In this document: one piece after another, positions 46,047-63,929 of the stretch
Layout: every line of letters begins with the position of its first letter
How positions within the stretch are numbered: position 1 is the stretch's first letter
The notes under the pieces: model-generated
The model's input: only the letters and a program-made list of their open reading frames with translations
Databases searched by the model: none
Told to the model about the DNA's origin: nothing
Sequence record: KY000079.2
DNA from: Acinetobacter phage AM24
Direction: 5' to 3' (one strand)
Length of the DNA stretch: 64,000 nt
Position numbers and translations under genes: made by a program

Positions 46047-46619
46047 ATGACACGTTTAAATACTCAATATGTTGAAACTCAAAACACTGGCAAGTTAAAA
46101 GTTGGTGATGTTGTTGAAATCTTAAATACAGAAGAATTCCATGATGGTGTAAAAGTTGGGGATCGTGCTGTTGTTTTACAAATTCGCACTATTTCAATCC
46201 TCGCATTACACTTCGCTGTATTAGGTTATGAAGTGGAAGGTAGTGATCACCTTGTATTCCGAAACATTGATTTTGAAGACTTTGAAGATGAAGTTAAATT
46301 CTTAGGTCGACAAACAGATGCACATGAATTCCAAACCAAATACCTTGAAAAGTTAGGTTCTACAAATATCCGTGTTCTTGATCTTGCACGTTTTGACGAA
46401 GATTATGTAGAGCAAAATGCTGTTTACCCTCTAGTTGGTGCTGCATTGAAACCTAAAATCAAGTGGGTTGAAAGCGAAGATGAAGGTCTGGTCGATGCTG
46501 TAACTGGTTGGGAAGCTGATACTGATGAAAATGGTGATGTTCTTGTGTTCCAACTTGAAGATGGTCACATCCAGTACACTCCGTTAGATGGAGGTGTTGA
46601 GTTAGCTTTAGCTAGTTAA
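46047..46619 (+). CDS. Larger member of the KOW/SH3-like VGD family, with an N-terminal double VGD repeat.
   Basis: KLKVGDVVEILNTEEFHDGVKVGDRAVVLQIR. The start is chosen at ATG 46047. Confidence 0.4.
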   Translation: MTRLNTQYVETQNTGKLKVGDVVEILNTEEFHDGVKVGDRAVVLQIRTISILALHFAVLGYEVEGSDHLVFRNIDFEDFEDEVKFLGRQTDAHEFQTKYLEKLGSTNIRVLDLARFDEDYVEQNAVYPLVGAALKPKIKWVESEDEGLVDAVTGWEADTDENGDVLVFQLEDGHIQYTPLDGGVELALAS

Positions 46620-46645
46620 TTCAATTAAATAACTGAGTTAAAGAA

Positions 46646-46672
46646 TGCCCCAACATTGTTTGGGGTTTTCTT
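46646..46672 (+). terminator. Rho-independent terminator.
   Basis: Stem ccccaa / ttgggg, loop cattgt, then ttttc. Confidence 0.45.
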
Positions 46673-46698
46673 GTAGTTTAACTTGACAGGAGGTCATT

Positions 46699-47091
46699 AT
46701 GGGAGAGCATATAATTCGTGCTCAGGCAATTGCGGAATTTAAAAGTAAAGACACAAGTAGGTTTGTTGGTTGTTCTGAAGTCCAATCAAAAACTGGTGCA
46801 ATTAAATCTGATGGGGGTTCTTCAACATATTACGATATTGCTATCCCCACAAGCTTACTTGAAGAGATGGCTGAACGAAGAAATGAAGATGGTTTATCTT
46901 ACATTAAAACTGAAGAGATCATCGAACTAGGTCTTGGAAATGATTTTGATGCTGGAAATATCTTCAAGTGTTTAATTCGAATGCAATCCTTAAAGAATGG
47001 TAAAGGTAAGGCTGGAAATGACTTAGAGTACGATGCTAACAAAGTTGTTTATTCTGCCAAAAAAATAGCAAAACGCTATTCTAAAAAATAG
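46699..47091 (+). CDS. Hypothetical protein.
   Basis: RBS gacaggaggtcattatg. 130 aa. Confidence 0.4.
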   Translation: MGEHIIRAQAIAEFKSKDTSRFVGCSEVQSKTGAIKSDGGSSTYYDIAIPTSLLEEMAERRNEDGLSYIKTEEIIELGLGNDFDAGNIFKCLIRMQSLKNGKGKAGNDLEYDANKVVYSAKKIAKRYSKK

Positions 47092-47103
47092 GTTTACATG
47101 TTA

Positions 47104-47140
47104 TTATCCCTCAAAGGTTGTCTTTTGAGGGATTTTTTAT
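47104..47140 (+). terminator. Rho-independent terminator.
   Basis: 10-bp stem atccctcaaa / tttgagggat followed by ttttttat. Confidence 0.5.
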
Positions 47141-47441
47141 GACTATGCGAAAAGAAGATGGTGGGATTGACTACCTACTTGCCTCCTTATTTTTATTATT
47201 GGGGTTTGTTTTAGGTGCTCTATTTCTTGCCTACCAAAACACTCAGTTTATGAAGAATGAAATGTATACAGATTGTGCTAAGCTAGGATTTTATGAGATC
47301 TATCCAGATGAGGGTAAAGGTGTCTACTGTACCATAGCAAAGTATGAGAAGGAGCACACTGAATACAATACTTACAAGGTTTTTAAAGATGATGGTGAGT
47401 TGTTTACCACCCTTCGTGAAGATTTAGGAGAGAAGAAATAA
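47139..47441 (+). CDS. Small membrane protein. The start is moved to the ATG after the terminator.
   Basis: TM segment YLLASLFLLLGFVLGALFLAY. Confidence 0.35.
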   Translation: MTMRKEDGGIDYLLASLFLLLGFVLGALFLAYQNTQFMKNEMYTDCAKLGFYEIYPDEGKGVYCTIAKYEKEHTEYNTYKVFKDDGELFTTLREDLGEKK

Positions 47442-47956
47442 TGCACATTCAAAAAGGTCAACTTCGCTTTAATAAGAGAGAGTTGTGGAACTTAGATAAA
47501 CACCTTGCTAAAGTTATTGTTCAGGGGTTACAACAGTTCAAGAGTGTCCACAAGAACACCATCCCACCTCACTTAGTCACTGAGGATATTAACCCTGAAA
47601 CTGGTAGAGAGGTTTATTGGGATTATTCTAGTGAGTATTGTGAACAACAATGGCAAGAGTTATTAGATAAGATGATCTTTGCGTTTACAGAGCATCCCAC
47701 ATACTTTGATATTGAACCTTATGATTTTCATTATGATGATTTAACACACCCTGAAAAGTTTCCTGAGCAAGTGTGGGAAGAGCATCCTGTTTATGGTAAG
47801 ATAACAGAGTGGAGGCAAGTGTTAAAAGAAGGTGTTACACAAGAAGATGTAGATGCTTGGTGGGAACGTAGTCGAGCTTATGATGCTGAGATTAAACGCA
47901 AAGTTGATGAAGGGCGAGAGTTATTCATTAAACATTTTGATAACTTATGGGACTGA
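47441..47956 (+). CDS. Hypothetical protein.
   Basis: Start coupled to the previous stop (taatg). 171 aa, acidic and aromatic-rich. Confidence 0.4.
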   Translation: MHIQKGQLRFNKRELWNLDKHLAKVIVQGLQQFKSVHKNTIPPHLVTEDINPETGREVYWDYSSEYCEQQWQELLDKMIFAFTEHPTYFDIEPYDFHYDDLTHPEKFPEQVWEEHPVYGKITEWRQVLKEGVTQEDVDAWWERSRAYDAEIKRKVDEGRELFIKHFDNLWD

Positions 47957-47985
47957 GATATACAGCATTATCGAGGAGGGTATAG

Positions 47986-48192
47986 ATGAGTAATATTAAA
48001 GTGGGTGATAAAGTAGAGGTTGTGAATACAGGTCTATTTGGATGGAATGTCCACATAGGACATGTTGGTACAGTGAAAAACATAGTGGGTGATTTTGAAA
48101 TAGAGGTGTATTTTGATAGTATTGGGGATGGACTAACCCAATGGGTTCACTACCCAACTTGGGAACGTTGGGTAAAAGTTATTAGGGAGTAA
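47986..48192 (+). CDS. KOW/SH3-like VGD-family small protein.
   Basis: MSNIKVGDKVEVVNTG...GHVGTVKNIV. RBS gaggagggtatagatg. Confidence 0.5.
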   Translation: MSNIKVGDKVEVVNTGLFGWNVHIGHVGTVKNIVGDFEIEVYFDSIGDGLTQWVHYPTWERWVKVIRE

Positions 48193-48195
48193 TTC

Positions 48196-48456
48196 ATGGG
48201 TAGACCAAATATAAGGGTTGGTGATACTGTGAGGATTTGTAAAAAAGATATCTTTGCACCTTTTGTTAGAAAAGGTGATCTTGCAATAGTGAAAGATATG
48301 CAGTTTGATGAGGATTGTGTTGACCTATGGTTAGACAGTTTTGGTTGGCACCACGAGCAAGTTGTAACAATTAGCAGGAATAGATCATATCCACCAAATA
48401 AATATATAACTTTTCTCCATCAATCTCAAAAACTTGTTGACAAACCTTCCGAATAA
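48196..48456 (+). CDS. KOW/SH3-like VGD-family small protein.
   Basis: IRVGDTVRICKK...KGDLAIVKDM. RBS agggagtaattcatg. Confidence 0.45.
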   Translation: MGRPNIRVGDTVRICKKDIFAPFVRKGDLAIVKDMQFDEDCVDLWLDSFGWHHEQVVTISRNRSYPPNKYITFLHQSQKLVDKPSE

Positions 48457-48500
48457 CCTTAATATTCAACCATAAGATAAACACTTAGTTTGGAGTTAAA

Positions 48501-49328
48501 ATGTTAAAAAAGATTGCTTTAGTTGGTGCGTTAGTTGCTTCGGCAGTTTCATTCACAGGTTGTACACGAGTTACTGATGCAGAGGTTGGTGTGAAGACTA
48601 GCTTCACTGGTAAGATTTCTGATTCACCACAATATCAAGGCTTGTATTTCCCTTGGGTATATAGCTTAGATAAATTCTCTACACGTAACCTGATTATTGA
48701 TGTTTCTGGTCAGCCTATTGTTGAGAATGTGCAGATGGATGGTATGACCATTCGGGTAAACTACTCAATTAAACCTGAACTTGCACCTGAAATGTGGAAA
48801 ACACAGAAGGCACAACACATGGTTCGTGGAGGTGGAGAGGGTGATGAAAAACGTGAGATATTCCTCATGGGTTTATATGTTGAGACAATCTCTCGTAATG
48901 TCATGATGGATGTGGTTAAGAACTACAAAGCCTTGGAGGTAAACTCTAAGCGTACAGAGATTGAGCCAATCTTAAAAGCTCAGATTGTGAAGACAATCAA
49001 TGCCAACGGTCGTGGTAAGTATGTGAATATTAATGAGGTGGTTATTATTAATTCACAACCACCGAAATCTGTTATGGATTCCGCTAAGCGTTACTTGACA
49101 TCACTAAACGACTTACGCACAAAGCAGAATGAAGTAGAGATTGCTAAGCAAGAATCTGAGCGATTAAAAGCTTTGGCTTCACAGGCAAATGAAACTACTT
49201 TAGACTACATGAGAGCACAAGCCCAATTGAATAACTCAGAAGCAATGATGGAAATGGCTCGTAATAAGAGTGTAAATAAGTTGATCATTGCACCAATGAA
49301 TATTACTTCATTAGGTAAGTTGGACTAG
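48501..49328 (+). CDS. Lipoprotein, possibly SPFH/band-7-like.
   Basis: Signal peptide with a lipobox-like MLKKIALVGALVASAVSFTGC. The central domain and the C-terminal coiled coil (KQNEVEIAKQESERLKALASQA) resemble HflK/C-type SPFH proteins. Confidence 0.45.
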   Translation: MLKKIALVGALVASAVSFTGCTRVTDAEVGVKTSFTGKISDSPQYQGLYFPWVYSLDKFSTRNLIIDVSGQPIVENVQMDGMTIRVNYSIKPELAPEMWKTQKAQHMVRGGGEGDEKREIFLMGLYVETISRNVMMDVVKNYKALEVNSKRTEIEPILKAQIVKTINANGRGKYVNINEVVIINSQPPKSVMDSAKRYLTSLNDLRTKQNEVEIAKQESERLKALASQANETTLDYMRAQAQLNNSEAMMEMARNKSVNKLIIAPMNITSLGKLD

Positions 49329-49378
49329 TACTAAATATACTGGGGAGTTATCCTCCCCAAATCTTTTTGGAGATTTAT

Positions 49379-49849
49379 ATGTCTTGGTTTAGTAAGATAT
49401 TTGGTGGTAAAGTTGTACAACAGCAAAATATAATGTCTAGTGGATCAGTAGTTGCTGGAGATTATGTTGGAAGAAATAACAATGGTAGTAATTCAGTAGG
49501 TTTTGATGTGACATTATCTGGTGGGTCTGTAAATATTAATGGCAGAAAATACACAGGGCGAAACATCCAAATTAATGGTGATCAAGTTATTGTTGATGGT
49601 GTAGTGAAAAGTACAGTGCAGTCAGGTCCAATAAATGTCGCTGTGAATGGTCATGTTGAAGATCTCAAAACAGTATCTGGTGATGTTACTGTCCAGAGTG
49701 GAACTGTTGGGAATATTCAAACAACCTCTGGAAATATCAATGTAAATGGTGATGTTCAAGGAAACATTAAAACAGTATCGGGAAATGTTAAGGGCCATAA
49801 GCTTGAAGGGGATGCACGTACAGTATCTGGCGATATAAAAACCCGTTAA
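49379..49849 (+). CDS. Beta-helix repeat protein (bactofilin-like repeats).
   Basis: Many repeats of the type VSGDVTVQSG / TSGNINVNGD / VSGNVKG. RBS gagatttatatg. Confidence 0.35.
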   Translation: MSWFSKIFGGKVVQQQNIMSSGSVVAGDYVGRNNNGSNSVGFDVTLSGGSVNINGRKYTGRNIQINGDQVIVDGVVKSTVQSGPINVAVNGHVEDLKTVSGDVTVQSGTVGNIQTTSGNINVNGDVQGNIKTVSGNVKGHKLEGDARTVSGDIKTR

Positions 49850-50041
49850 GGAGTTGTTAAGTGAATGCATTTATCTTATGGTTTATGGTATTTATGCTTT
49901 ACCTTTTGGTATGGCGTGTGGTAAAATTATATAAAGAAGATAAGGTTGGGGAGTTCTTTACAATGATGTGTATTGTAATGCTGCCAATACTAACAACTGC
50001 TATCTCTAAAGCTGTATTAAGTAGTTAATTAGGAGAAATAT

Positions 50042-50389
50042 ATGTCAAAGAATTCACATGTAAATACATTGGAAGTTGTGAATGGTGGTAATCCTGTAGT
50101 TAGTATTCAAGATTTGAACACTGCACGTAAAAACAAGTTGTTCCATGATGGTTTACAACGTGTATATGAAAAGATGTACCGTAGTGGTTTTATGAAAGAT
50201 ACCACACCAAAACAACAAAAGATGATTGAGGAAGAACCAATCATGATGTTATCTCGTGAGTTATATCCATCACGACAAGCATACCGACATGCGCTTCGCA
50301 GTTGGGCTAAACAGAAAGAGCGATTTGAAAAGGCTGCATCTCGTGGATTGCTTGCAGAGCACTTGAAGGTTCACTTATATGGTCTTTAA
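50042..50389 (+). CDS. Hypothetical protein.
   Basis: RBS taggagaaatatatg. 115 aa, basic. Confidence 0.4.
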   Translation: MSKNSHVNTLEVVNGGNPVVSIQDLNTARKNKLFHDGLQRVYEKMYRSGFMKDTTPKQQKMIEEEPIMMLSRELYPSRQAYRHALRSWAKQKERFEKAASRGLLAEHLKVHLYGL

Positions 50390-50400
50390 TTACTAAGATA

Positions 50401-50423
50401 AGCCCCGAAAGGGGTTTTCTTGT
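50401..50423 (+). terminator. Probable rho-independent terminator.
   Basis: gcccc gaaa ggggt followed by tttcttgttt. Confidence 0.35.
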
Positions 50424-50436
50424 TTAGGAGGTTTGT

Positions 50437-50634
50437 GTGGATAAATTTAAAGTTGGAGATGCTGTTAAGGTGGTTGCAACGAAGTCTGAATTAAATTCAA
50501 TTTTTGCACCACTACACCTAAAAGGTTTTGTTGGTGTCATAACAAACATAAATTTTGATGGTTTCTACAGAGTTAGGTTTGAGGATGATTGGTGGAATCT
50601 AAGAGAGTGTGATATCGATAAGGTGGTAGGATGA
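50437..50634 (+). CDS. KOW/SH3-like VGD-family small protein. GTG start.
   Basis: MDKFKVGDAVKVVATK...KGFVGVITNI. RBS ttaggaggtttgtgtg. Confidence 0.45.
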   Translation: MDKFKVGDAVKVVATKSELNSIFAPLHLKGFVGVITNINFDGFYRVRFEDDWWNLRECDIDKVVG

Positions 50635-50843
50635 GTATAAATACACAAAACATTAAAATGGGAGATAAAGTTAAAGTTATCTCCACTGAACGTCAACTTT
50701 CTGAGATTGGTGCATCTGGAGATAACCTCAAAGGAAAGATTGGTGTGGTAACTAGCATCTTTAGTTATGGTTTTGCTGTTGAATTTGATAAAAGTGGGTG
50801 TTGGTGTTTGAGGTTTAAAGATGTCCATAAAGTTTTAGAATGA
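50631..50843 (+). CDS. KOW/SH3-like VGD-family small protein.
   Basis: IKMGDKVKVISTE...KGKIGVVTSI. Start overlaps the previous stop. Confidence 0.45.
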   Translation: MSINTQNIKMGDKVKVISTERQLSEIGASGDNLKGKIGVVTSIFSYGFAVEFDKSGCWCLRFKDVHKVLE

Positions 50844-50866
50844 TTGTTGTGCAAGTGTAAATTAAT

Positions 50867-50895
50867 TTGACAAGTTTAACTTTTGATGATATACA
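50867..50895 (+). promoter_or_regulatory. Sigma70-type promoter.
   Basis: -35 ttgaca, 17-bp spacer, -10 tataca. Upstream context attaatttgaca. Confidence 0.4.
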
Positions 50896-50929
50896 TAAGG
50901 AACTATTAAACTTTTAAGAGGAATATTTT

Positions 50930-51361: not shown

Positions 51362-51511
51362 TATGAGGGAAATTTCTAAAGAGGGTATCAAAAGAAAAAT
51401 TAAAGATTGGTACAACCTAGCAGTAACACATCCAAGGATTTCCTATGCGATATTCTTGGTGGTTGTTTTTTCTTTAATACTTTTAAATACTGAATAATAA
51501 CAGGAGGTTAT

Positions 51512-54765: not shown

Positions 54766-54948
54766 ATGGTTAAACAACAAACTTTTGATGAATGGTATGC
54801 TGAGTGGACTGGTTCCAGTATTAAGTGTGAGAACACTGATGTACGTGCTGCATGGGATCATCAACAGAAACGTATTCAGTTTCTGGAAAAGGCATTTGAA
54901 AACTTAAAACTCCAGTTGGAAGACAAAGAGATTGATTCCAAGGTGTGA
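54766..54948 (+). CDS. Hypothetical small protein.
   Basis: 60-aa ORF immediately after the previous stop. Confidence 0.3.
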   Translation: MVKQQTFDEWYAEWTGSSIKCENTDVRAAWDHQQKRIQFLEKAFENLKLQLEDKEIDSKV

Positions 54949-55153
54949 TTTTCTACCGAGTCAGTAATCCTGAATGGGAACTTGGCGTAAGAAGTTTTAA
55001 AGCGATGTCATTAACAAAATTTTAATAGGTAGGTAACTATGAGTGTTATTTCAAAAAGTTTTGACTTTATTATAACAGTTGTAGCTGTGGGTTTGTTTTT
55101 CTTTATGTTTGGATTTTGGTCAGCGTACTTTATTTTTACCTAATAGGATCACT

Positions 55154-55525
55154 ATGAAACAAATTATTTTTCTAGACGATGAAAGAGTTATCCAAGACGT
55201 AACTTGGATAGATTACTCTCAATGGTCGGGTGCTTACGTTATTTCTCAAAGTTCAGCTTCTCGTTTAATCTCATACATTAAACATTATGGGAAATACTTT
55301 GACTGGGAAAATACTTTGTTTTCCTTAGACCATGACCTTCAGGATTTTGATGGGGAGGAAGAGTCTACAGGCTACACCTTCATTAAATGGTTGATTGAAT
55401 TCATGGTTGAGAATGAGATTTCCTTAGAATATCTCAATGTAGTTGTGCACTCCCAAAACCCTATTGGCAAAGAAAACATTGAAAAATATATCAGTAATGC
55501 TAAACTACATTATTTGGAATTCTAG
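55154..55525 (+). CDS. Hypothetical protein with a receiver-like N-terminus (IIFLDDER).
   Basis: The start is chosen at ATG 55154 (MKQIIFLDDERV). Confidence 0.35.
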   Translation: MKQIIFLDDERVIQDVTWIDYSQWSGAYVISQSSASRLISYIKHYGKYFDWENTLFSLDHDLQDFDGEEESTGYTFIKWLIEFMVENEISLEYLNVVVHSQNPIGKENIEKYISNAKLHYLEF

Positions 55526-55744: not shown

Positions 55745-55902
55745 TCAACATCGTTTATTTGGTTTTAGTTATTACGTGGAATAGTGGAACAGCAACAGTA
55801 CAAGTTCCACAAGCAAATATAAAACAATGTGAGATTAACAAACAAGCACTAATTCCTGATGAGAGTGTTAAACGAGCTTATTGTATTGTTGGGGTGAAGT
55901 GA
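55741..55902 (+). CDS. Small protein with an N-terminal signal or TM segment.
   Basis: MINIVYLVLVITWNSG. Confidence 0.3.
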   Translation: MINIVYLVLVITWNSGTATVQVPQANIKQCEINKQALIPDESVKRAYCIVGVK

Positions 55903-56120
55903 TGCAATACTATCAACTTGGTGACGTTGTGGAAGTTGTAGAATTAGTGGCACTTGATAGTAAATTTGGTATCCAAATTGGTGATGTTGCTAAAGTTGTT
56001 ACAGTCAAGAATTTCCCTGATGGATCTCAGATGGTTGATTGTTACAATCCAAAGTGGGATCATGAAAATCTCAATGGTATTAGAGAAATGACTCGTTCTC
56101 AGTTGAAAAAGGTGAAGTAA
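55902..56120 (+). CDS. KOW/SH3-like VGD-family small protein.
   Basis: LGDVVEVVELV...IGDVAKVVTV...CYNPKW. Confidence 0.5.
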   Translation: MQYYQLGDVVEVVELVALDSKFGIQIGDVAKVVTVKNFPDGSQMVDCYNPKWDHENLNGIREMTRSQLKKVK

Positions 56121-56350
56121 TGGCAGCAAGAGATTATGAAGATTACCCTTTAGTTGTGGGTGATAGAATTATTGTCAAGTACACTATAGAGGTCGATGAA
56201 AATAATGGTGTGAAGGCTGGTGATGTAGCCAAGGTTGTTTATGTGGATTTAGATCACGATGTTTGGTGCTTCAACCCTAACTGGAAACTTGGCAATGTTG
56301 AACTTGGTGGTAACTTCATGAGAAGTGATCAAATTGGGAGATTAAAATGA
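56120..56350 (+). CDS. KOW/SH3-like VGD-family small protein.
   Basis: VGDRIIVKYT...AGDVAKVVYV...CFNPNW. Confidence 0.5.
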   Translation: MAARDYEDYPLVVGDRIIVKYTIEVDENNGVKAGDVAKVVYVDLDHDVWCFNPNWKLGNVELGGNFMRSDQIGRLK

Positions 56351-56767: not shown

Positions 56768-56962
56768 ATGAGTTATTTTAAAGTAGGTGACAAAGTAGAG
56801 GTGATAGAGGTTTTAGCTGCCGATGAGGAAGCTAATATTAAAGTGGGTGATGTTGCAAAAGTCACTGTGGTGAGAGGGCCTTTGTGGATTCAATGTGAAA
56901 ATCCTGAATGGGAAGAAGGCTTCATGCCTATGAGAGAGTTCCAAATCAAGAGGGTGGGTTGA
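56768..56962 (+). CDS. KOW/SH3-like VGD-family small protein.
   Basis: KVGDKVEVIEV...VGDVAKVTVV...CENPEW. Confidence 0.5.
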   Translation: MSYFKVGDKVEVIEVLAADEEANIKVGDVAKVTVVRGPLWIQCENPEWEEGFMPMREFQIKRVG

Positions 56963-56965
56963 TTA

Positions 56966-57159
56966 TGAAGTTTCAGGTAGGTGATAAAGTAGTTATCACA
57001 AAGGTTACAGTAACAGATATTAGATTTGGGGTGAAGGTTGGAGATGTAGCCAAGGTGGTTGAACAAGGTGACTGGGATCCAAATTGGTACTATTGTAGAA
57101 ACCCTGATTGGAAACAAGATACAGTCAATATGAAAAATGACCAAATTAAAAAACTCTGA
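56966..57159 (+). CDS. KOW/SH3-like VGD-family small protein.
   Basis: QVGDKVVITKV...VGDVAKVVEQ...CRNPDW. Start at the ATG after RBS agagggtgggttgattatg. Confidence 0.5.
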
Positions 57160-57295: not shown

Positions 57296-58489
57296 ATGGA
57301 TTTACTTATTGGTCATTCTTACCAGTTAATCAACACTAAAGACCCAGCTTTCATGTTCACAACTGGTTTTAGTGACCCTAAGACAAATAAAGTCATTAAA
57401 GATGCTGTTATTAAACCTTACAGCAAAGATGATGATGGTGATGTTTTTGCTTATGCATACTTCCCAGATCGTCAAGACACTATTATCAATCCAGATCATA
57501 ATGTGTTGATCATTCGAAGTGAATTTGATTTGTTTAAAGAAGTTGGTGCTGGTGATCAATCTCAACCAGAAGTGGATGGAATTGAAGAAAGTGAAGTATT
57601 CTCTCACAATCTTAAGAAGATGTTCCAAGAGATGGTTGATAAGAACCTAAGCTCTGAAGAGATGCAAGCGAAGATCACTGAAACTATCCGTGAAACTGTG
57701 CTAGAGCAAGCTCCACGACCACTTGAAGTGAAGTTTGGTGAGAAGACAACTGTAATTGGTACTGCTCACGTAATGCTTGAAGAAGCTTTAAAACGCTTAA
57801 ATGCAACAAAGAACATCATGTTAGTTGGTCCTGCTGGTTCTGGTAAGACTTACCTTGCAGCACAACTTGCAGAGTCTTTAGAGCTTGACTTCTCATCAAT
57901 TTCTTGTAGCTCTGGTATGTCTGAATCAGTAATTACTGGTTGGTTGTTACCTGTTGATGGTGGTGCATTTGAATATCATGAAAGTGACTTTATTCGAATT
58001 TACGAAAATGGTGGTGTGTTCTTGTTCGATGAAATGGATGCTGCTGACCCATCTATCCTATTGATCATCAACCAAGCATTAGCAAACGGTAAAATTACTG
58101 TTCCGCAACGTAAAGGTAATACCGAAGTTAAACGACATAAAGATTTCATTTGCGTTGGTGCATGTAACACATTTGGTCGTGGTTCTAACTTGATGTACTC
58201 TGGTCGTGAACGTCTTGATGAATCAACACTTGACCGTTTCCGTTTAGGTTTGATGGAAATGGACTACGATAAGCTTCTTGAAGAAAGAGTTGTTGATAAA
58301 GCTGTTCGTGATTGGGCTTGGCAAGTACGTGCTCGAATTCAGGAAAGTGGTTTACGCCGAGTGATGTCAACACGTTTCATGATCGATGCAACTAAGTTAT
58401 TACAAAACACTGATGCAACAATGCAGAAAGTAAAAGATATCTTCTTTGTTGGTTGGAAGGAAGATGAACGCCGAAAAGTTGACCACTAA
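57296..58489 (+). CDS. MoxR/CobS-like AAA+ ATPase.
   Basis: Walker A MLVGPAGSGKTYLA, Walker B VFLFDEMD, sensor/arginine region STLDRFRLG. N-terminal domain of about 170 aa. Confidence 0.65.
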   Translation: MDLLIGHSYQLINTKDPAFMFTTGFSDPKTNKVIKDAVIKPYSKDDDGDVFAYAYFPDRQDTIINPDHNVLIIRSEFDLFKEVGAGDQSQPEVDGIEESEVFSHNLKKMFQEMVDKNLSSEEMQAKITETIRETVLEQAPRPLEVKFGEKTTVIGTAHVMLEEALKRLNATKNIMLVGPAGSGKTYLAAQLAESLELDFSSISCSSGMSESVITGWLLPVDGGAFEYHESDFIRIYENGGVFLFDEMDAADPSILLIINQALANGKITVPQRKGNTEVKRHKDFICVGACNTFGRGSNLMYSGRERLDESTLDRFRLGLMEMDYDKLLEERVVDKAVRDWAWQVRARIQESGLRRVMSTRFMIDATKLLQNTDATMQKVKDIFFVGWKEDERRKVDH

Positions 58490-58504: not shown

Positions 58505-58537
58505 AGCCTCTAGAGATTACTCTAGGGGTTTTCTTTT
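58505..58537 (+). terminator. Rho-independent terminator.
   Basis: Stem cctctaga / tctagggg (one G-U pair) followed by ttttctttt. Confidence 0.45.
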
Positions 58538-58550
58538 GCATAAATTTTAC

Positions 58551-58579
58551 TTGATTTAAAAATAGAATTTGTTTAGAAT
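58551..58579 (+). promoter_or_regulatory. Sigma70-type promoter.
   Basis: -35 ttgatt, 17-bp spacer, -10 tagaat. Confidence 0.4.
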
Positions 58580-58615
58580 CTACTTAGTTATTAAACTCAA
58601 TAAGAGGATATCTCA

Positions 58616-59509
58616 ATGTATAAAGCTGTTGAAAATGTTAAAGGTTTGCGCGGTAAAGTGGCGATCGTTAAATATAGAAATGTTTCTGATGCTATGGACC
58701 ACTATAAGAAATATGATGTGGACATCCCTTTCAAGCACAATAAAGGTCAGGTTTCAGAGTATCGTGGTGGTCATCATAGTACTGATTGGACAGGTTTTAG
58801 TGATCAACGTCACTTTGAACAAACTATGCTTCATGGTGATAAAATCAAAGCGATTGAGATTGAAGAAATTCAAGCACCAGAAGTTAAGGTTGAGTCACGT
58901 AAACGTAAACGCCACAAAGGACCTATCGGTGATACTTTAGATATTCATGCAGTATATCGTGGTGAATTAGATCGTGCATGGACCTATACCAAACGTGATA
59001 TGCATGATGGTGGCATGAAAAACATTACCCTCCTAATTAACATTGGTGATAACTGTGGTATTTCCTCACAGGCATTAGGGTGGCGTGGTGCAGTGGCATT
59101 GAAAGTCTGTGATGTGATGACTGAAGCTGGCTACAATGTTCGAATCATTGCTAACCAAATGACTGAAAATGTAACCCGTGATGATGATGGTTATGGTTAC
59201 AATTGCACAACTGTTAAAGACTTTGATGAATACTTGGATGTTCCTAAGCTTGCTGCTATCTTCTGTCGTGCAGGTTTCTTCCGTTCAGTAATCTTCACCA
59301 CAATTGTTTATGAAGCTGAATTACTAGGGAAACGTGTAGATTATGGTTTAGGTCGATCTATCAAGTCACAGAGTGAGGAAGGTAAGAAGCTCATCGAACA
59401 TGTGCACCAAGACGAAGGATATATGGTGGTATTCCCTTCAGTGAATGGTAAAGAAGATGCTTTAAATGCCATGAAGGAGATCTTAAAGCCTTATTTAATT
59501 GAGGAATAA
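58616..59509 (+). CDS. Hypothetical protein, possible partner of the AAA+ ATPase (VWA/CobT-like?).
   Basis: RBS aagaggatatctcaatg. 297 aa. The segment ITLLINIGDNCGIS weakly resembles a MIDAS-type beta-strand-loop. Confidence 0.3.
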   Translation: MYKAVENVKGLRGKVAIVKYRNVSDAMDHYKKYDVDIPFKHNKGQVSEYRGGHHSTDWTGFSDQRHFEQTMLHGDKIKAIEIEEIQAPEVKVESRKRKRHKGPIGDTLDIHAVYRGELDRAWTYTKRDMHDGGMKNITLLINIGDNCGISSQALGWRGAVALKVCDVMTEAGYNVRIIANQMTENVTRDDDGYGYNCTTVKDFDEYLDVPKLAAIFCRAGFFRSVIFTTIVYEAELLGKRVDYGLGRSIKSQSEEGKKLIEHVHQDEGYMVVFPSVNGKEDALNAMKEILKPYLIEE

Positions 59510-59511
59510 TC

Positions 59512-59793
59512 ATGGATCGTCAAGAGATGATTAAAAAGTACCCTATCGGCTCTAAGCTGGTAGGGAGGTATCTAGGACACAAACAGTCTTCAAGTGAAAT
59601 GATTTGTAAGGTTGTTGGTTATTCTGCTTTCAGAACTTCGATGTTAGTCTATAATCCAGAAATAATTGGTCATACTGGTACTGGAAGATGTGTAGATCAA
59701 ACAGGATCTAGGATTTCTGGGGAAAAGATAAAAGATCTTTATGGTAACCATTGTTGGTATGTTAAATATGAAGATTTGCGAGGTAATCAATGA
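59512..59793 (+). CDS. VGD-family subfamily B small protein (YPIG.KV...GKVVGY...YNP.ITGHSG...CWY).
   Basis: YPIGSKLVGRY...CKVVGYSAF...YNPEIIGHTGTG...CWYVKY. Confidence 0.45.
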   Translation: MDRQEMIKKYPIGSKLVGRYLGHKQSSSEMICKVVGYSAFRTSMLVYNPEIIGHTGTGRCVDQTGSRISGEKIKDLYGNHCWYVKYEDLRGNQ

Positions 59794-60083
59794 TTTTAGA
59801 AGAGTTAGAAGACATTGCTAGAGAATATCCAATAGGTTCGAAGGTTATATGCAATGGTAATCATCTTGGTTATGGGAGTAATGAGAAAGACTTAGTTTGT
59901 AAAGTTCTTGGCTATAGTCGATTGGGCTATGGTTTGTTATTATACAACCCTGACATTACAGGACACTCAGGGAATGACTATTGTTTAAATGGTTTGCATG
60001 AAGAAGTTGATCAAAGCTACCTTGAGAGAAACTACCGAGAGAGTTGCTGGTATATTAGCTACAACATGGTTAAGAAGGTGTAG
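59790..60083 (+). CDS. VGD-family subfamily B small protein.
   Basis: YPIGSKVICNG...CKVLGYSRL...YNPDITGHSGND...CWYISY. Confidence 0.45.
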   Translation: MILEELEDIAREYPIGSKVICNGNHLGYGSNEKDLVCKVLGYSRLGYGLLLYNPDITGHSGNDYCLNGLHEEVDQSYLERNYRESCWYISYNMVKKV

Positions 60084-60113
60084 TATACCTATAGATAAAA
60101 TGTGGAGGTATAA

Positions 60114-60386
60114 ATGGTTGCTATTCCAAAAGATAAATTCCCTATTGGATGTAAAGTAAGGGTGATTAGTGGAGATTGTTGCTGGAAAACTGGAGATATT
60201 GGCAAGGTTATAGGTTATAGTGATACAGATGATGTTGTTGTATATAATCCACGTATAGAAGGCCATAATGCAGAAATTTCTTGTTTTGATGAGAATGGTT
60301 GTAGGGTCAAAGATGAAGTAAGGTTAAAATATGCAGGTCATTTATGGTACTTCTCTATAAGAAGTATAGAAAGAATTGGAGGTTAG
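60114..60386 (+). CDS. VGD-family subfamily B small protein.
   Basis: FPIGCKVRVIS...GKVIGYSDT...YNPRIEGHNAE...LWYFSI. Confidence 0.45.
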   Translation: MVAIPKDKFPIGCKVRVISGDCCWKTGDIGKVIGYSDTDDVVVYNPRIEGHNAEISCFDENGCRVKDEVRLKYAGHLWYFSIRSIERIGG

Positions 60387-60389
60387 GTT

Positions 60390-60851
60390 ATGAGTAAGCA
60401 AGTAGAAAACCCTAAGTACAAAGCCTTAAAACAACCTACAGGTAATGGTTCATGTCGCCCTAAAGGTTATGGCTGGGTACAAGTTGATAGGTTGGTTGGC
60501 TCTGACAATCAGTATGGTATTGTAGAAAATGGTATCTATAAGGTTGTGGTGTATAATCCTTTAGGTGTAATTATTATTACTCCAGATGCCCCGTATGGTG
60601 ACAACACAAGAGAGCTAATTAAAGACCAATACCATTGGGTTTCATTTGATGATGTCTTTAACCCAATACCTGAAGATGAAGAACTGAAGGTGGGTGATAG
60701 GGTGATGCTTAATCAAGACTACAACAACTATAAAAAAGGTTATGTTATGAAAGTAAAAGAAATCAGAAAAGATGGTGACGATTTGCTTGTAAAACTTTGT
60801 AATCCGAGTACATCCTTCTGGGCTTATTCTTATAGAATACGTAAATTCTAA
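60390..60851 (+). CDS. Hypothetical protein with a C-terminal VGD/KOW-like module.
   Basis: LKVGDRVMLNQ...KGYVMKVKEI. Confidence 0.35.
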   Translation: MSKQVENPKYKALKQPTGNGSCRPKGYGWVQVDRLVGSDNQYGIVENGIYKVVVYNPLGVIIITPDAPYGDNTRELIKDQYHWVSFDDVFNPIPEDEELKVGDRVMLNQDYNNYKKGYVMKVKEIRKDGDDLLVKLCNPSTSFWAYSYRIRKF

Positions 60852-60871
60852 TTAAGTTTCCCTTGAAAACT

Positions 60872-60900
60872 TGCACAAACACTCAAGAAATGGTAATATG
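60872..60900 (+). promoter_or_regulatory. Sigma70-type promoter.
   Basis: -35 ttgcac, 17-bp spacer, -10 taatat. Confidence 0.4.
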
Positions 60901-60935
60901 CACCTATCAATCAACCAAGCATTATAGGTGCTAAA

Positions 60936-61400
60936 ATGGATAAACTTTTTAAGTATACCAAACTTCAACAATCTCAAAAAACTTCAAAATTATCATCTAC
61001 TTACAATAAAGTGACTACTTATGTAGCTCGCTTTTTTCGTGTTGCCTTTAAAAACTTCTTAAGTATGTTTGATGGTGGAAGTCCTCAAGATATCATGCGA
61101 GATAGATTTAAAGAGTGGCACGAAGAGGTAAGTCTTGCAAATAAGAAGGTGGCTTATCAAGTTGGTCAGAGAGTAACCATTAATGATGTTTCTTATTTTG
61201 AGAAATACAGAGGTTTTCATGCTGGTGATGTTGCAAAAATTACCAAATTGATTAATGAGGATGGTGTTGAGAAGTTAGCACTGTTCAATCCTAAATGGAT
61301 TACTGCTAAAGATGAACTTGATTTGGGTTGTGTAATTGTTGACCCTAAGAAATGTATGGTGGAGATTGTTGGTGTTAAATCTGGGGGTGTAAATGTATAA
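60936..61400 (+). CDS. KOW/SH3-like VGD-family protein (C-terminal module).
   Basis: QVGQRVTIND...AGDVAKITKL...LFNPKW. Confidence 0.45.
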   Translation: MDKLFKYTKLQQSQKTSKLSSTYNKVTTYVARFFRVAFKNFLSMFDGGSPQDIMRDRFKEWHEEVSLANKKVAYQVGQRVTINDVSYFEKYRGFHAGDVAKITKLINEDGVEKLALFNPKWITAKDELDLGCVIVDPKKCMVEIVGVKSGGVNV

Positions 61401-61602
61401 TGAAGGTCTGCCTGTAGATGGTGCTAAAATAGTGGTACATAGCCCTGATGACATATCTAGAAACACCCACAACGTAAGAGAAAACGATGTTGGTAAAGTG
61501 GTTGGTAGATATAACGGTCAAGGAAATGGAATTGTTGCCAAGAACCCTAACTGGAAAGATGGTACACTGTGCTTAGGTCCTAATAAGTACGAGGTAATTT
61601 AA
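61393..61602 (+). CDS. KOW/SH3-like VGD-family small protein.
   Basis: DGAKIVVHSP...NDVGKVVGRYNG...AKNPNW. Confidence 0.5.
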   Translation: MYNEGLPVDGAKIVVHSPDDISRNTHNVRENDVGKVVGRYNGQGNGIVAKNPNWKDGTLCLGPNKYEVI

Positions 61603-61603
61603 C

Positions 61604-61804
61604 ATGAAAGCTAAAATTGGTGATATTATAGAAATCACCACACCTGATGAAGAAAGTTTAAAAAGAGGTGTGAAATTAGGACAAATTGGAAAAGTTACTG
61701 AAGAGTATGAGTTCGGTTGTTTTGCCAAGAATCCTTTATGGGGTGAAAAAATTGTAGGTTTCTGGAATGACGAATTTGAAGTCTTAAATGAAGTGCAGAG
61801 GTAG
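61604..61804 (+). CDS. KOW/SH3-like VGD-family small protein.
   Basis: KIGDIIEITT...LGQIGKVTEE...AKNPLW. Confidence 0.5.
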   Translation: MKAKIGDIIEITTPDEESLKRGVKLGQIGKVTEEYEFGCFAKNPLWGEKIVGFWNDEFEVLNEVQR

Positions 61805-61813
61805 GAATAAGTT

Positions 61814-62128
61814 ATGGAAAGTTGGGATGGTTATTTAGAAACATACCCTATTGGGGGTAGTTATAAGGAACATAGTAGTGGTACGGGTCAATCTAAAAAT
61901 ATTAAAGTTGGATCTAGGATTATTGTAACAAACCCTGACGCTGTTTCCCAAAGAGTTGGTAAGATTAAAGCTGGCGATGTTGGTAAGGTTGTATGTGTGG
62001 ATGCAGTTAATGGTATACTGGCATATAACCCCAACTGGAATAATCGAGATCGTAGTGTTGATGATGACTATGATTACAATGGGACAGCTTGTTTTTTACT
62101 CCCGTATGAATTTGAGATCATATCTTAG
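61814..62128 (+). CDS. KOW/SH3-like VGD-family small protein.
   Basis: VGSRIIVTNP...AGDVGKVVCV...AYNPNW. Confidence 0.5.
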   Translation: MESWDGYLETYPIGGSYKEHSSGTGQSKNIKVGSRIIVTNPDAVSQRVGKIKAGDVGKVVCVDAVNGILAYNPNWNNRDRSVDDDYDYNGTACFLLPYEFEIIS

Positions 62129-62136
62129 GTGACAAT

Positions 62137-62322
62137 ATGGTGAAGATAGGCACTAAAGTTATTGTAAAGTATGTATATTTAATGTCTACTAGTGGTGCAA
62201 AAGTTGGTGATGTTGCCAAAGTTATTGGTCGTTATAATGGCAATGGGGTTGTTGTAAAGAACCCTAATTGGTTGTGTGGTACACTATCACTAAAATTTGG
62301 TGAATTTGAGCTAATAAAGTGA
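62137..62322 (+). CDS. KOW/SH3-like VGD-family small protein.
   Basis: IGTKVIVKYV...VGDVAKVIGRYNG...VKNPNW. Confidence 0.5.
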   Translation: MVKIGTKVIVKYVYLMSTSGAKVGDVAKVIGRYNGNGVVVKNPNWLCGTLSLKFGEFELIK

Positions 62323-62329
62323 GGATGTT

Positions 62330-62590
62330 ATGACTGAGTGTTACGGCTGGTATGTTCCAACATCACAAAAAGAGTATGTTATACGAGTTGGCGATAAAGT
62401 TGAAATTATCGATGCTTGGGGGATGGATAAAGAAAAGGGGATTCAAAATGATCACATTGCCAAGGTTACTCAAGTCGGAGATAAATACATTTTATGTAGG
62501 AATCCAATTTGGAAAATTAGGGGTGATAGAGCTATGGGATTTGAACAAGTGAAGTTGATAGACTTATCAGATAAGGAGGAATTGCTATGA
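62330..62590 (+). CDS. KOW/SH3-like VGD-family small protein.
   Basis: VGDKVEIIDA...NDHIAKVTQV...CRNPIW. Confidence 0.5.
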   Translation: MTECYGWYVPTSQKEYVIRVGDKVEIIDAWGMDKEKGIQNDHIAKVTQVGDKYILCRNPIWKIRGDRAMGFEQVKLIDLSDKEELL

Positions 62591-62844
62591 AAGAACCAGA
62601 AATTGGCACAAAAGTTGTAATTGTTAATCCTGATGATCATTCTCGTGGAGAGGGTATTGTGGAGGGAGATGTTGCGAAGGTTGTTGGGGTGGATACTTGC
62701 ATAAAAGATTGTGATTTACTACTTCTCTTGCACAATCCTAAGTGGGAAAACATGCAAGAAGGTGTTCTAAGTTGCAACACACCTTGTCATCTTGTATACT
62801 TATCTGAATGTGATATTTACGAAGAATGCCTTAAGGGGACTTAG
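62587..62844 (+). CDS. KOW/SH3-like VGD-family small protein.
   Basis: IGTKVVIVNP...EGDVAKVVGV...LHNPKW. Confidence 0.5.
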   Translation: MKEPEIGTKVVIVNPDDHSRGEGIVEGDVAKVVGVDTCIKDCDLLLLLHNPKWENMQEGVLSCNTPCHLVYLSECDIYEECLKGT

Positions 62845-62846
62845 TT

Positions 62847-63137
62847 ATGAGTTGGAGAGTACCTGAAATTGGTGAGAGGGTTGTGATGTCACACCCTGAT
62901 TATGAATCAAAAATACACAAGATTAAATCGGGAGATGTTGGAAAAGTAGTGGGAATAATACCTGATGATGACCCAAGCCTAGTATTACTATTCTTGTACA
63001 ATCCAAACTGGGACCTTGATGAATACTATCCTCATGATATTGGGGATGAGTTTATAGGCGACCCTGAAGAAGCTTGTCTGGTGTATATTCGTGAATGTGA
63101 TCTTCATGGAATAAATGAGAGTGAGGCAAAATTGTAA
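62847..63137 (+). CDS. KOW/SH3-like VGD-family small protein.
   Basis: IGERVVMSHP...SGDVGKVVGI...LYNPNW. Confidence 0.5.
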   Translation: MSWRVPEIGERVVMSHPDYESKIHKIKSGDVGKVVGIIPDDDPSLVLLFLYNPNWDLDEYYPHDIGDEFIGDPEEACLVYIRECDLHGINESEAKL

Positions 63138-63237
63138 TGGAAATTGGACAAAAATTGTTGTAAAGCACCTAGATTTCTAGTCTAAACAGGATGTGATTAA
63201 ATATGGTAATGTTGGTAAGGTATTTGGAGGTTGATTA

Positions 63238-63588
63238 ATGGCTCAGAAATTAGAGTTTCATGAAGGTTATGTCCTGATGGATGGGGTCAAAATGAATGTT
63301 GATTTGGATTATACTGACCAAACAACAGGCTGGAGCACAAAAGATGTAATAGAAGCATTCCCATATGGTTGCAAGGTCAGCCTTGATGTAGAAGGTTTGG
63401 TTGGTAGAAAGGGTGTAGGTAAGGTTGTGGGATATTGGGATGACTGTGTTCTTGTTTATAATCCACAGAATACAGGACACTCTGGAGGGTCATTTTTTGA
63501 GGAAAACAGGCATTTATGGAAAGAGATTTATAGTGGAAAATGTTGGTGGATTCATTTTACTAGAGTTAGAGATGTGAGAAAGATATGA
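63238..63588 (+). CDS. VGD-family subfamily B protein.
   Basis: FPYGCKVSLD...GKVVGYWDD...YNPQNTGHSGG...CWWIHF. Confidence 0.45.
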   Translation: MAQKLEFHEGYVLMDGVKMNVDLDYTDQTTGWSTKDVIEAFPYGCKVSLDVEGLVGRKGVGKVVGYWDDCVLVYNPQNTGHSGGSFFEENRHLWKEIYSGKCWWIHFTRVRDVRKI

Positions 63589-63929
63589 GTGCTAAGATAC
63601 CAGAAATACCACCTATACCAGAGCCAGAAAAACCTTATGAAATTTCCCAGACTGTATATAGTCGATTTAATCAGCAAAAGTGTAAGTATGAAGTATTTTC
63701 TGTGGGTGAGAGGGTAAGAATATTCCTTTATGGATCTCAATTCCTGAATAATTATGGAATTTACGATGGTCAAGTAGGGAAGATTGTGGAGATAAAAAAG
63801 GTTGATATGGGGAATGGAAGTGTTGTTGCTAAGATTTACATAAAAAACCCACTATGGCACTATAAATTACCTGACAAAGACCCTACAATAATGGAGTTTT
63901 TGGATCATGAAGTTTCCATATTGGAGTAG
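63585..63929 (+). CDS. KOW/SH3-like VGD-family protein.
   Basis: VGERVRIFLY...DGQVGKIVEI...IKNPLW. Confidence 0.45.
   Translation: MSAKIPEIPPIPEPEKPYEISQTVYSRFNQQKCKYEVFSVGERVRIFLYGSQFLNNYGIYDGQVGKIVEIKKVDMGNGSVVAKIYIKNPLWHYKLPDKDPTIMEFLDHEVSILE

Follow-up and report, generated by a model that had tools for sequence, protein, structure and literature searches.

An array of 23 genes for variants of one small, predicted SH3-like barrel protein in a lytic Acinetobacter baumannii phage

Downstream of its replication module, a 97-kb lytic A. baumannii myophage of the AM24/Bestia/Mithridates group carries an array of small plus-strand genes, which raises the questions whether these genes have a single origin and what a phage might do with so many versions of one protein. 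Phages of this group are being investigated for therapeutic use against A. baumannii. A first-pass annotation of a 64-kb window (the whole stretch of DNA analysed) had listed at least 23 separate paralogs. All 23 were present among the window ORFs, as neighbouring plus-strand genes for variants of one small SH3-like beta-barrel protein of 61-190 aa, at the starts originally listed except for 56966, which was corrected to 56965. They account for about one gene in eight (about 13% of the phage genes) and are interleaved with unrelated accessory genes. Reading frames were intact in all 23 members, and a Shine-Dalgarno-like motif preceded every one, in line with the proposal that copies have their own ribosome-binding sites. 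Many copies had been said to overlap by ATGA or TAATG junctions; the genes are tightly packed, with six ATGA overlaps and several gaps of 1-3 nt. As suspected, the array runs past the window end, where a Shine-Dalgarno site lies at 63992-63997; in sister phages, the gene that follows at this point belongs to the family. The genes, referred to below by their start positions, are:

46047..46619, plus strand: member, 190 aa, N-terminal barrel at about aa 17-55 and very acidic C-terminal extension (pI 4.4); converged HMM E 6e-9, core HMM E 1e-3, no Pfam match; conserved in 6/6 phages
47986..48192, plus strand: subgroup C member, 68 aa; phrog_5785 E 1.8e-15; among the most Mind-bomb-like members (HMM from Mind bomb repeats only, E 6e-6)
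48196..48456, plus strand: subgroup C member, 86 aa; phmmer against 47986 E 5e-5, converged HMM E 6e-12; allele without an ortholog of at least 60% identity in five sister phages
50437..50634, plus strand: subgroup D member, 65 aa; phrog_20971 E 5e-35
50631..50843, plus strand: subgroup D member, 70 aa, starting in an ATGA overlap with 50437; phmmer against 50437 E 1e-10, converged HMM E 2e-10
54936..55025, plus strand: relic of a 24th member, last 29 codons and stop (IFYRVSNPEWELGVRSFKAMSLTKF, then stop; motif repeat D4, frame translation)
55902..56120, plus strand: core member, 72 aa, GDVAKVV...NPKW; core HMM E 3e-25, phrog_5785 E 6e-23
56120..56350, plus strand: core member, 76 aa, structure-modelled
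56768..56962, plus strand: core member, 64 aa; core HMM E 1e-26; in 6/6 phages
56965..57159, plus strand: core member, 64 aa, start checked; core HMM E 1.5e-26
59512..59793, plus strand: subgroup B member, 93 aa, phrog_16588 type, pattern YPIG.KV...KVVGY...YNP..GH...CWY; phmmer against 59790 E 2e-21 and against 60114 E 2e-12
59790..60083, plus strand: subgroup B member, 97 aa; phrog_16588 E 6e-36, subgroup B HMM
60114..60386, plus strand: subgroup B member, 90 aa, bridging B and core; core HMM E 5e-5
60390..60851, plus strand: two-barrel member, 153 aa (aa 29-82 and 99-153); converged HMM E 1e-17, two domains
60936..61400, plus strand: member, 154 aa, basic 73-aa N-terminal extension and C-terminal core barrel; core HMM E 6e-23 (aa 73-154)
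61393..61602, plus strand: core member, 69 aa; core HMM E 3e-23
61604..61804, plus strand: core member, 66 aa; core HMM E 5e-23
61814..62128, plus strand: core member, 104 aa; core HMM E 8e-22, phrog_5785 E 5e-21
62137..62322, plus strand: core member, 61 aa; core HMM E 1e-22, subgroup B HMM E 6e-4; no ortholog of at least 60% identity in five sister phages
62330..62590, plus strand: core member, 86 aa; core HMM E 2e-25
62587..62844, plus strand: core member, 85 aa, acidic (pI 4.5), Cys-rich; core HMM E 7e-22
62847..63137, plus strand: core member, 96 aa, acidic (pI 4.4); core HMM E 9e-22
63238..63588, plus strand: subgroup B member, 116 aa; phmmer against 60114 E 5e-11; no ortholog of at least 60% identity in five sister phages
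63585..63929, plus strand: member, 114 aa, proline-rich N-terminus PEIPPIPEPEKP and barrel; core HMM E 2e-7, converged HMM E 2e-15

Twelve core members matched one another at phmmer E 1e-4 to 1e-14, and an HMM built from them recovered its own members at E 1e-21 to 1e-26. When this core HMM was run against 316 window ORFs, 18 of the 23 candidates ranked above the best non-candidate (E 0.54). An iterated profile converged on 20/23 members with zero false recruits, no other window ORF being pulled in, and the remaining three (59512, 59790 and 63238) were linked via 60114 at E 1e-10 to 1e-12. Profile-profile comparison with hhalign joined the core to subgroup B (75%, E 2.5e-5) and to subgroup D (86%, E 5.5e-6). 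Reversed and shuffled ORF sets, used as controls, returned nothing below E 1e-3. Because of these E-values and controls, all 23 members are assigned to one superfamily by sequence comparison, with homology well above chance. Of the two-part signature that had been said to be common to all copies, the literal motifs were present in some members only: the regular expression for the first element fitted 7/23 members, GD[VI][AG]KV[VI] 8/23 and the third expression 5/23, while NPxW occurred in 13/23. The ten members without NPxW are divergent relatives that fall into three subgroups (B, C and D, beside the core). Amino-acid identity between paralogs is 20-45%.

AlphaFold2 models of one core member (56120, pLDDT 84) and one subgroup B member (60114, pLDDT 86) indicated that each unit of approximately 60 aa is a single SH3-like five-stranded barrel, the five strands recurring in the 60114 model, which also has an inserted segment of about 25 aa. 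A fold of the SH3/KOW type, as originally proposed, was thus borne out, whereas the reading of the two signature elements as two KOW-like repeats was not: the two elements correspond to the first two strands of a single barrel, and 60390 is the only member with two units. The residues that hold the fold (G of VGD, V.V, G-D-V-A/G-K-V and N-P-x-W) are fixed, and three loops (the strand 1-2 loop, the strand 2-3 hairpin and the stretch after NPxW) vary both between paralogs and between orthologs. Several members carry N- or C-terminal extensions. Six members are basic and 14/23 are acidic, with a median pI of 5.7 and, in several, a net charge of -9 to -22.

Relationships to catalogued families were sought at the level of single members and of profiles. 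No Pfam or NCBIfam model reached threshold for any member. Sub-threshold matches were obtained with SH3_15 (PF18346; 2/25 members, best E 0.01, below gathering score), SH3_1 (canonical SH3, PF00018; 2/25 members, E 0.09) and KOW (PF00467; 1/25 members, E 0.043, and 0/10 full-length members at E up to 1). MIB_HERC2 (PF06701) matched no window member, the ligand-binding residues ALYDY, WW and P..Y were absent from the family alignments, no characterised viral structure matched the members, and a literature search found nothing on the family. The motif, which had been left without a named family, is nevertheless catalogued: phrog_5785, phrog_16588 or phrog_20971, all of unknown function in PHROGs, matched 10/10 members tested (E 7e-5 to 3e-39). 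The sequences are therefore already known, but PHROGs splits them over separate unannotated families and records neither their common origin nor their fold nor their expansion to 20-28 copies.

Mib/HERC2 SH3-like domains are known chiefly from eukaryotic ubiquitin ligases. Against the PDB, the family profile matched HERC2 at E 9e-4; against 1.84 billion proteins, its best matches were multi-repeat proteins with Pfam SH3_15 (E 7e-97). An alignment of Mind bomb repeats matched the family (hhalign 96%, E 5e-9) and subgroup D (92%, E 6e-7), statistics that are biased upward since the alignment was drawn from the family profile's own best matches. With the same bias, an HMM built from these repeats only gave family members as 36 of its 40 top matches among 1,724 phage ORFs (best E 3e-6). 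Members also resembled the solved MIB1 REP and HERC2 domains in fold comparison. By profile-profile and fold comparison, the SH3 repeats of Mind bomb thus appear to be the closest named relatives, although only remotely.

There is some chance, although not a large one, that the members are nucleic-acid-binding barrels of the KOW, Sso7d or OapB type, which would modulate transcription or translation, serve as RNA chaperones or interfere with NusG/Rho. KOW proteins (NusG/Spt5, uL24, eL14) are likewise SH3-like five-stranded barrels; the phage unit, in contrast, consists of one barrel with neither an NGN domain nor ribosomal context, and the predominance of acidic members, the single sub-threshold KOW match and the fact that the only near-significant sequence affinities are to protein-binding Mib/HERC2 repeats all argue against nucleic-acid binding.

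Orthologs were compared between the window phage and five sister phages at a cut-off of 60% identity. Each phage carries 20-28 copies, which form 45 ortholog groups, only about nine of them common to all six, and phages with approximately 93% nucleotide identity to one another differ in how many copies they carry and in which ones. In five reciprocal-best paralog pairs (phmmer), the two genes are neighbours, which is the pattern expected from local duplication. The relic at 54936 has an intact counterpart in Mithridates, Bestia and YMC13 (compared by eye with intact gene L031 11316-11522), and a chimeric paralog is present in a metagenome. HNH endonuclease genes are scattered through the array region in sister phages. 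Stretches of motif-coding DNA of 18-47 nt recur along the array, but long DNA-level repeats between paralogs are absent from it, which indicates that the paralogs are old. Median dN/dS in the family was 0.34, against 0.12 in neighbouring genes (p 1e-6); values were below 1 in 18/19 members with measurable orthologs and exceeded 1 only in 60114 (1.23), while three control frames overlapping real genes gave 1.0-1.4. Together, the adjacent pairs, the inter-phage differences and the raised dN/dS support the proposed history of repeated duplication and diversification. Positive selection was not demonstrated, because mean dN/dS is below 1; at the sequence level, the raised ratio fits diversification but does not prove the arms race that the first-pass annotation had suggested, in which members might act in host takeover, anti-defence or superinfection exclusion.

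Between two family blocks lie genes for an AAA_5 (MoxR/dynein-type) ATPase (57296-58489) and a DUF7192 protein (58616-59509), conserved in 6/6 phages, and relatives on other phage contigs adjoin PhoH, ribonucleotide reductase and thymidylate synthase genes. Both arrangements would suit members that act as adaptors or cofactors of the phage's own machinery, either as substrate adaptors of the ATPase and DUF7192 protein or as subunits of replication or nucleotide-metabolism complexes, with the NPxW core as a possible common docking surface. This role is nonetheless improbable: a fixed partner explains neither the dispensability of most ortholog groups nor the raised dN/dS, and phage BS46, whose genome organisation is similar (PMC11126041), lacks the expansion. 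Least credible is that recombination-prone short repeats have generated the array as a nearly neutral by-product, its drifting copies having little or no function, for although the recurring stretches could seed illegitimate recombination and copies have been gained, lost and left as relics, dN/dS lies below the values of overlapping frames, frames and Shine-Dalgarno sites are intact throughout, about nine groups are retained in all six phages, and the paralogs are old.

The observed homology, fold, arrangement, turnover and selection pattern are best explained, with a chance that we put at about even, by a tandem expansion of stand-alone SH3-like barrels that form a distant phage offshoot of the Mind bomb/MIB-HERC2 domain type and would serve as a protein-binding repertoire for host takeover or counter-defence. 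Early or middle expression, protein binding and biological role are the parts that we infer. Host RNA polymerase would make the members together with replication and nucleotide-metabolism genes; sigma-70-like promoters, which as consensus matches are no commoner than in shuffled sequence, and intrinsic terminators split the region into small units. Each member, as a small protein-binding module, would bind a different host protein, for example a protein of the host's defences or a target of takeover, and block or redirect it. The set would be remodelled continually as members duplicate locally, diverge, are replaced by other alleles or are lost. A more specific version of this protein-binding repertoire is tentative at best: a rigid Mind-bomb-like barrel might present its three hypervariable loops as a natural binder, each copy neutralising a different host defence or housekeeping protein, and the set might be reshuffled between phages by duplication, loss and recombination between paralogs, possibly started by endonucleases. 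In a variant, the copies would be substrate adaptors that can stand in for one another, all docked through a common NPxW face on one partner, for example a host protease or the AAA+ ATPase encoded within the array.

If members bind host proteins specifically, the array would supply ready-made small inhibitors of Acinetobacter defence or housekeeping functions and would account for host-range differences beyond tailspike specificity. In any case, the array is a plain example of a multigene family that has diversified within a mid-sized phage genome, and the family may form a sequence-level bridge from phage proteins to Mib/HERC2 SH3-like domains that bears on the origin of those domains.

Comparison with known systems shows both likenesses and differences. 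Mind bomb and HERC2 are ubiquitin ligases, and a crystal structure of the MIB1 MZM-REP region with bound Jagged1 peptide is available (PDB 4xi7). The phage proteins, in contrast, are independent proteins of 60-190 aa, each with its own gene, rather than repeats inside a RING or HECT ligase, NPxW is specific to them, and the ubiquitin system is not involved. The multigene families or gene 'accordions' of large DNA viruses likewise place paralogs side by side in an accessory region and vary among close relatives in the number and identity of the copies, and in phage T6 the homing endonuclease SegB is reported to drive amplification of anti-defence loci (PMC13096335); unlike such recent amplifications, the array copies are old and diverged. 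A precedent for the proposed mechanism is Nip of Bacillus phage phi3T, for which SH3-like domains are predicted and which counters the host defence protein SpbK; Nip, SpbK and the phage protein YonE make up a tripartite complex (PMC11984713). Nip, however, is a two-domain protein of 279 aa with an HU-like dimerisation domain, encoded by a single gene of a temperate Bacillus phage, and is likened to the array members by description, not by homology.

The window shared 93-94% nucleotide identity with lytic Acinetobacter baumannii myophages of ~97-102 kb, a group that includes Mithridates, Bestia, Herod, YMC13/03/R2096 (YMC13), P577 and Ab15. Further relatives, of roughly 97-100 kb, occurred in Logan assemblies. 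Mapping onto Bestia placed the gene array after a + strand module for replication and nucleotide metabolism (primase/helicase, DNA polymerase, exonuclease, thymidylate synthase, PhoH and dCMP deaminase), from where it extended rightwards to the end of the deposited sequence. All genes of the family were annotated as "hypothetical protein" in every record examined. The 23 + strand ORFs listed in the first-pass annotation were all present at the given starts, with lengths of 61-190 aa, except that the ORF placed at 56966, itself genuine and on the + strand, starts at 56965. A ribosome-binding site had been claimed for most copies, and a Shine-Dalgarno-like motif was indeed found upstream of each of the 23; the reported overlapping junctions were likewise observed as dense packing, with six ATGA overlaps and many gaps of 1-9 nt. 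Together, the genes covered 6,486 nt, or 36% of 46047-63929, and fourteen consecutive members occupied 59512-63929, uninterrupted by other genes. Because the genes are located outside the structural module, a virion or structural role was rejected.

An all-vs-all phmmer comparison divided the 23 genes, named by their start coordinates, as follows.

55902, 56120, 56768, 56965, 60936, 61393, 61604, 61814, 62137, 62330, 62587, 62847, + strand: core (n = 12; links E 1e-4 to 1e-14)
59512, 59790, 60114, 63238, + strand: subgroup B
47986, 48196, + strand: subgroup C
50437, 50631, + strand: subgroup D
46047, 60390, 63585, + strand: singletons

A core HMM recovered the twelve core proteins at E 1e-21 to 1e-26 and, outside the core, ranked 63585 (2e-7), 60114 (5e-5), 60390 (2e-4), 47986 (6e-4) and 46047 (1e-3) above every non-candidate, the best of which reached E 0.54 among 316 window ORFs. 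A profile iterated over the window and five sister phages (Mithridates, Bestia, Herod, Ab15 and YMC13) converged on 20 of the 23 candidates and recruited no other window ORF, and none from the first 48 kb of Bestia. The three candidates that it missed belong to subgroup B and matched 60114 at E 1e-10 to 1e-12, while the subgroup B HMM matched core member 62137 (E 6e-4). Profile alignments (hhalign) linked the core to subgroup B (75%, E 2.5e-5) and to subgroup D (86%, E 5.5e-6). When the 1,724 ORFs were all reversed or shuffled, no match fell below E 1e-3. Based on these phmmer links, profile matches and clean controls, sequence comparison assigned the 23 genes to a single superfamily. An artefact of chance or composition was rejected as a reading of the shared motifs. 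The claim that all copies carry a two-part signature was overstated: NPxW occurred in 13 of 23, and the three regular expressions fitted 7/23, 8/23 and 5/23.

The signature had also been interpreted as two KOW repeats per protein. In the AlphaFold2 model of 56120 (pLDDT 84), a single barrel was formed by strands 16-19, 36-42, 47-51, 64-68 and 72-74, with VGD.V.V as strand 1, GDVAKVV as strand 2 and NPNW following strand 3. Since both elements thus fall within one barrel, the two-repeat reading was rejected. The model of the subgroup B protein 60114 (pLDDT 86) reproduced these five strands; between strands 3 and 4 it had ~25 inserted residues that include a helix. Two units were carried by 60390, and three members had distinctive termini.

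46047: acidic C-terminal tail
60936: basic N-terminal extension
63585: proline-rich N-terminus

The median pI of the family was 5.7 and 14 of 23 products were acidic. Column-by-column inspection of the profile showed that the positions defining the fold are fixed, namely G4, V7, G24, V26, K28, V29, N44, P45 and W47. Variation, both among paralogs and inside ortholog groups, was found in three segments: columns 10-19 (strand 1-2 loop), columns 33-39 (strand 2-3 hairpin) and columns 48-60 (the stretch beyond NPxW). The strand 1-2 loop and strand 2-3 hairpin are the counterparts of the RT and n-Src loops of SH3 domains, which make up the ligand-binding face of those domains.

Searches of Pfam with single members and of NCBIfam returned no member at threshold, and PHROGs placed members in phrog_5785, phrog_16588 and phrog_20971, each listed as of unknown function. 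Foldseek against the PDB found generic SH3, eL14 and Agenet barrels only, none of them below E 1e-3, and the matches in BFVD were all uncharacterised orthologs from the proteomes of two sister phages, whose accession prefixes we take to denote AM24 and YMC13. Profiles of subgroups B and D yielded only weak ribosomal echoes in the PDB, and the top PDB sequence match of the family profile was HERC2 (E 9e-4, two repeats). A HMMER profile scan of 1.84 billion representative proteins produced just 241 matches at E up to 1e-3. Among the matches listed, about half were small NPxW proteins resembling those of the window and the remainder were multi-repeat proteins, the top ones being genuine Mind bomb SH3 repeat proteins: P0063 matched Pfam SH3_15 at E 7e-97, and P0075 combined WW, SH3_15 and RING domains. 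Several weaker multi-repeat matches also passed the SH3_15 gathering score.

Alignment with ten Mind bomb repeats gave 96% and E 5e-9 for the family and, over the full domain, 92% and E 6e-7 for subgroup D (hhalign), and an HMM built only from these repeats placed family proteins in 36 of its best 40 matches among 1,724 phage ORFs (top E 3e-6); all these values are optimistic because the ten repeats had been selected among the top matches of the family profile itself. In view of this biased choice, the family is best described as a probable remote relative, rather than a member, of the Mib/HERC2 SH3-like domains. Four tandem minus-strand paralogs were found in a small-gene cluster outside the window (YMC13 sequence L006, 46256-47531; Bestia sequence L003, 6679-7954). 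They share the pattern ...VGAKVT...WW.V.WSNG..N.Y....LKVLG, and the best of them approached Pfam MIB_HERC2 (E 5e-6) with 26.7 bits, below the gathering score of 33.5. Their resemblance to the window family was weak (E about 0.1).

Members were found in each sister phage.

Herod: 20 members, + strand, same region
YMC13: 20 members, + strand, same region
Bestia: 21 members, + strand, same region
Ab15: 22 members, + strand, same region
Mithridates: 28 members, + strand, same region

At the position of 50437, genes in the sister-phage sequences L001 (6577-6783), L002 (35855-36061) and L006 (26914-27120) did not reach the family-HMM cut-off of E 1e-3 but were among the top matches of the Mind-bomb-repeat HMM (E 0.004-0.4), so that the sister-phage counts are probably slightly too low. 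As had been considered possible, the array continues past the window: in Bestia, Herod, Ab15 and YMC13, the position that follows is occupied by another family gene, encoding 99-106 aa. A strong Shine-Dalgarno sequence (AGGAGG, 63992-63997) in the closing segment 63930-64000 indicated that a further gene begins just beyond the window end. Mithridates carried five additional members beyond its copy of 62847.

At a threshold of at least 60% identity, the 134 proteins of the six genomes formed 45 ortholog groups, of which only about nine were common to all six; four window alleles (48196, 50437, 62137 and 63238) lacked an ortholog. Five reciprocal-best paralog pairs were physically adjacent, as local duplication predicts. 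DNA shared among paralogs was confined to short motif-coding stretches of 18-47 nt, which indicates that the duplications are old; with no long DNA repeats left, recent amplification was rejected. Downstream of an unrelated ORF (54766-54948), a relic at 54936-55025 (+ strand) retained the final 29 codons and stop of a member. Since the corresponding 68-aa gene is intact in Mithridates, Bestia and YMC13, the relic looks like a scar of replacement or deletion. The metagenomic protein P0100 was a chimera, with ~30 initial residues of 60390 type followed by the barrel of a different paralog; its junction at the conserved LVGS/VGD motif suggests that paralogs recombine there. The 100-nt gap 63138-63237 contained a 9-codon ORF (MEIGQKLL plus stop) and an IKYGNVGKV-coding stretch, both like pieces of family members; alignment did not convincingly show it to be what a deletion had left of the Mithridates gene following the 62847 ortholog.

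The expansion is specific to the AM24-group lineage. BS46, of related cluster 14, did not carry it, and its sole significant relative was gp65, in which two family-like N-terminal units are fused to DUF3310. When IMG/VR was scanned with a degenerate DNA pattern, 31 loci were returned, with true members only in the YMC13 genome and the others due to chance. The 40 pattern sites in GTDB genomes included no relative and hence, at that sensitivity, gave no hint of copies in prophages or cellular genomes. Other phage-like contigs encoded relatives with fused repeats or an extra domain, adjoining PhoH or nucleotide-metabolism genes.

Selection was estimated as pairwise Nei-Gojobori dN/dS against orthologs. 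The family median was 0.34 (range 0.10-1.23), with 60114 alone above 1, as compared with 0.12 for the remaining + strand genes (Mann-Whitney p 1e-6) and 0.13 for those of at most 160 aa (p 2e-4). Three spurious frames overlapping real genes gave 1.0-1.4. With a median below the values of the spurious frames and above that of their neighbours, the family genes are real and constrained, though less so than the neighbours.

Several other genes in the window were also noted.

21646-24417, - strand: ribonucleotide reductase large subunit, 923 aa, equal in length to the YMC13 ortholog, for which an intein containing a LAGLIDADG domain is annotated
48501-49328, + strand: SPFH/Band 7 protein with lipoprotein-like N-terminus (Pfam E 3e-10)
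49367-49849, + strand, after the SPFH gene: 160 aa of GDV/GNI-type short repeats, no Pfam match
49861-50028, + strand, next: small hydrophobic protein
55109-55525, + strand, just upstream of the core block: 138 aa, Pfam cREC_REC (cyclic-phosphate processing receiver domain; E 2e-16), conserved in five sister phages
57296-58489, + strand, within the array: AAA_5 (dynein/MoxR-type) ATPase, conserved in all sister phages
58616-59509, + strand, within the array: DUF7192 protein (E 3e-89), conserved in all sister phages

The genes at 48501-50028 may form a membrane-associated module between family members, and the stand-alone cREC_REC-type domain in a lytic phage may be related to nucleotide-signal conflict systems. 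Between the AAA_5 and DUF7192 genes, Mithridates and Bestia carried an extra minus-strand gene of ~875 nt, absent from the window, Herod, Ab15 and YMC13.

The fold itself is unremarkable, and PHROGs already contains the sequences. No published description of the family was found in the literature searched, where three points seem undescribed: that the three PHROG families belong together, that they are probably akin to Mib/HERC2, and that a fast-turning-over array of 20-28 copies makes up ~13% of a phage's genes. The family merits an experimental look and is not categorically new.

These analyses established that the barrel is small and rigid with loops that vary, that most products are acidic, that turnover is rapid and that constraint, although relaxed, is real. 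This structural and evolutionary part is, by itself, considered highly probable. Members would bind proteins, because the modules closest to them in sequence bind peptides. Binding of nucleic acid by the members is an unlikely alternative, and a role as adaptors, serving either the AAA_5/DUF7192 pair of the phage itself or its replication complex, is slightly less likely still. Near-neutral drift of the array is highly improbable. Under the protein-binding proposal, host RNA polymerase would transcribe the members alongside the replication genes; candidate near-consensus sigma-70-type promoters were located in intergenic gaps starting at 50844, 53423, 57160, 58490 and 60852, and predicted intrinsic terminators were 2.6 times commoner than in shuffled sequence. 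Separate copies would address separate host proteins, for takeover or counter-defence. For the whole chain, from barrel family through protein binding and expression by host RNA polymerase to targets in host takeover or counter-defence, we consider the chances of being right and wrong to be evenly balanced. Among known systems, the MZM-REP region of MIB1 has a crystal structure in which a Jagged1 peptide is bound (entry 4xi7). The phage protein Nip, with predicted SH3-like domains, forms a complex with a defence protein and counters it, and thereby provides a precedent for an SH3-like phage protein that counters defence by complex formation (PMC11984713).
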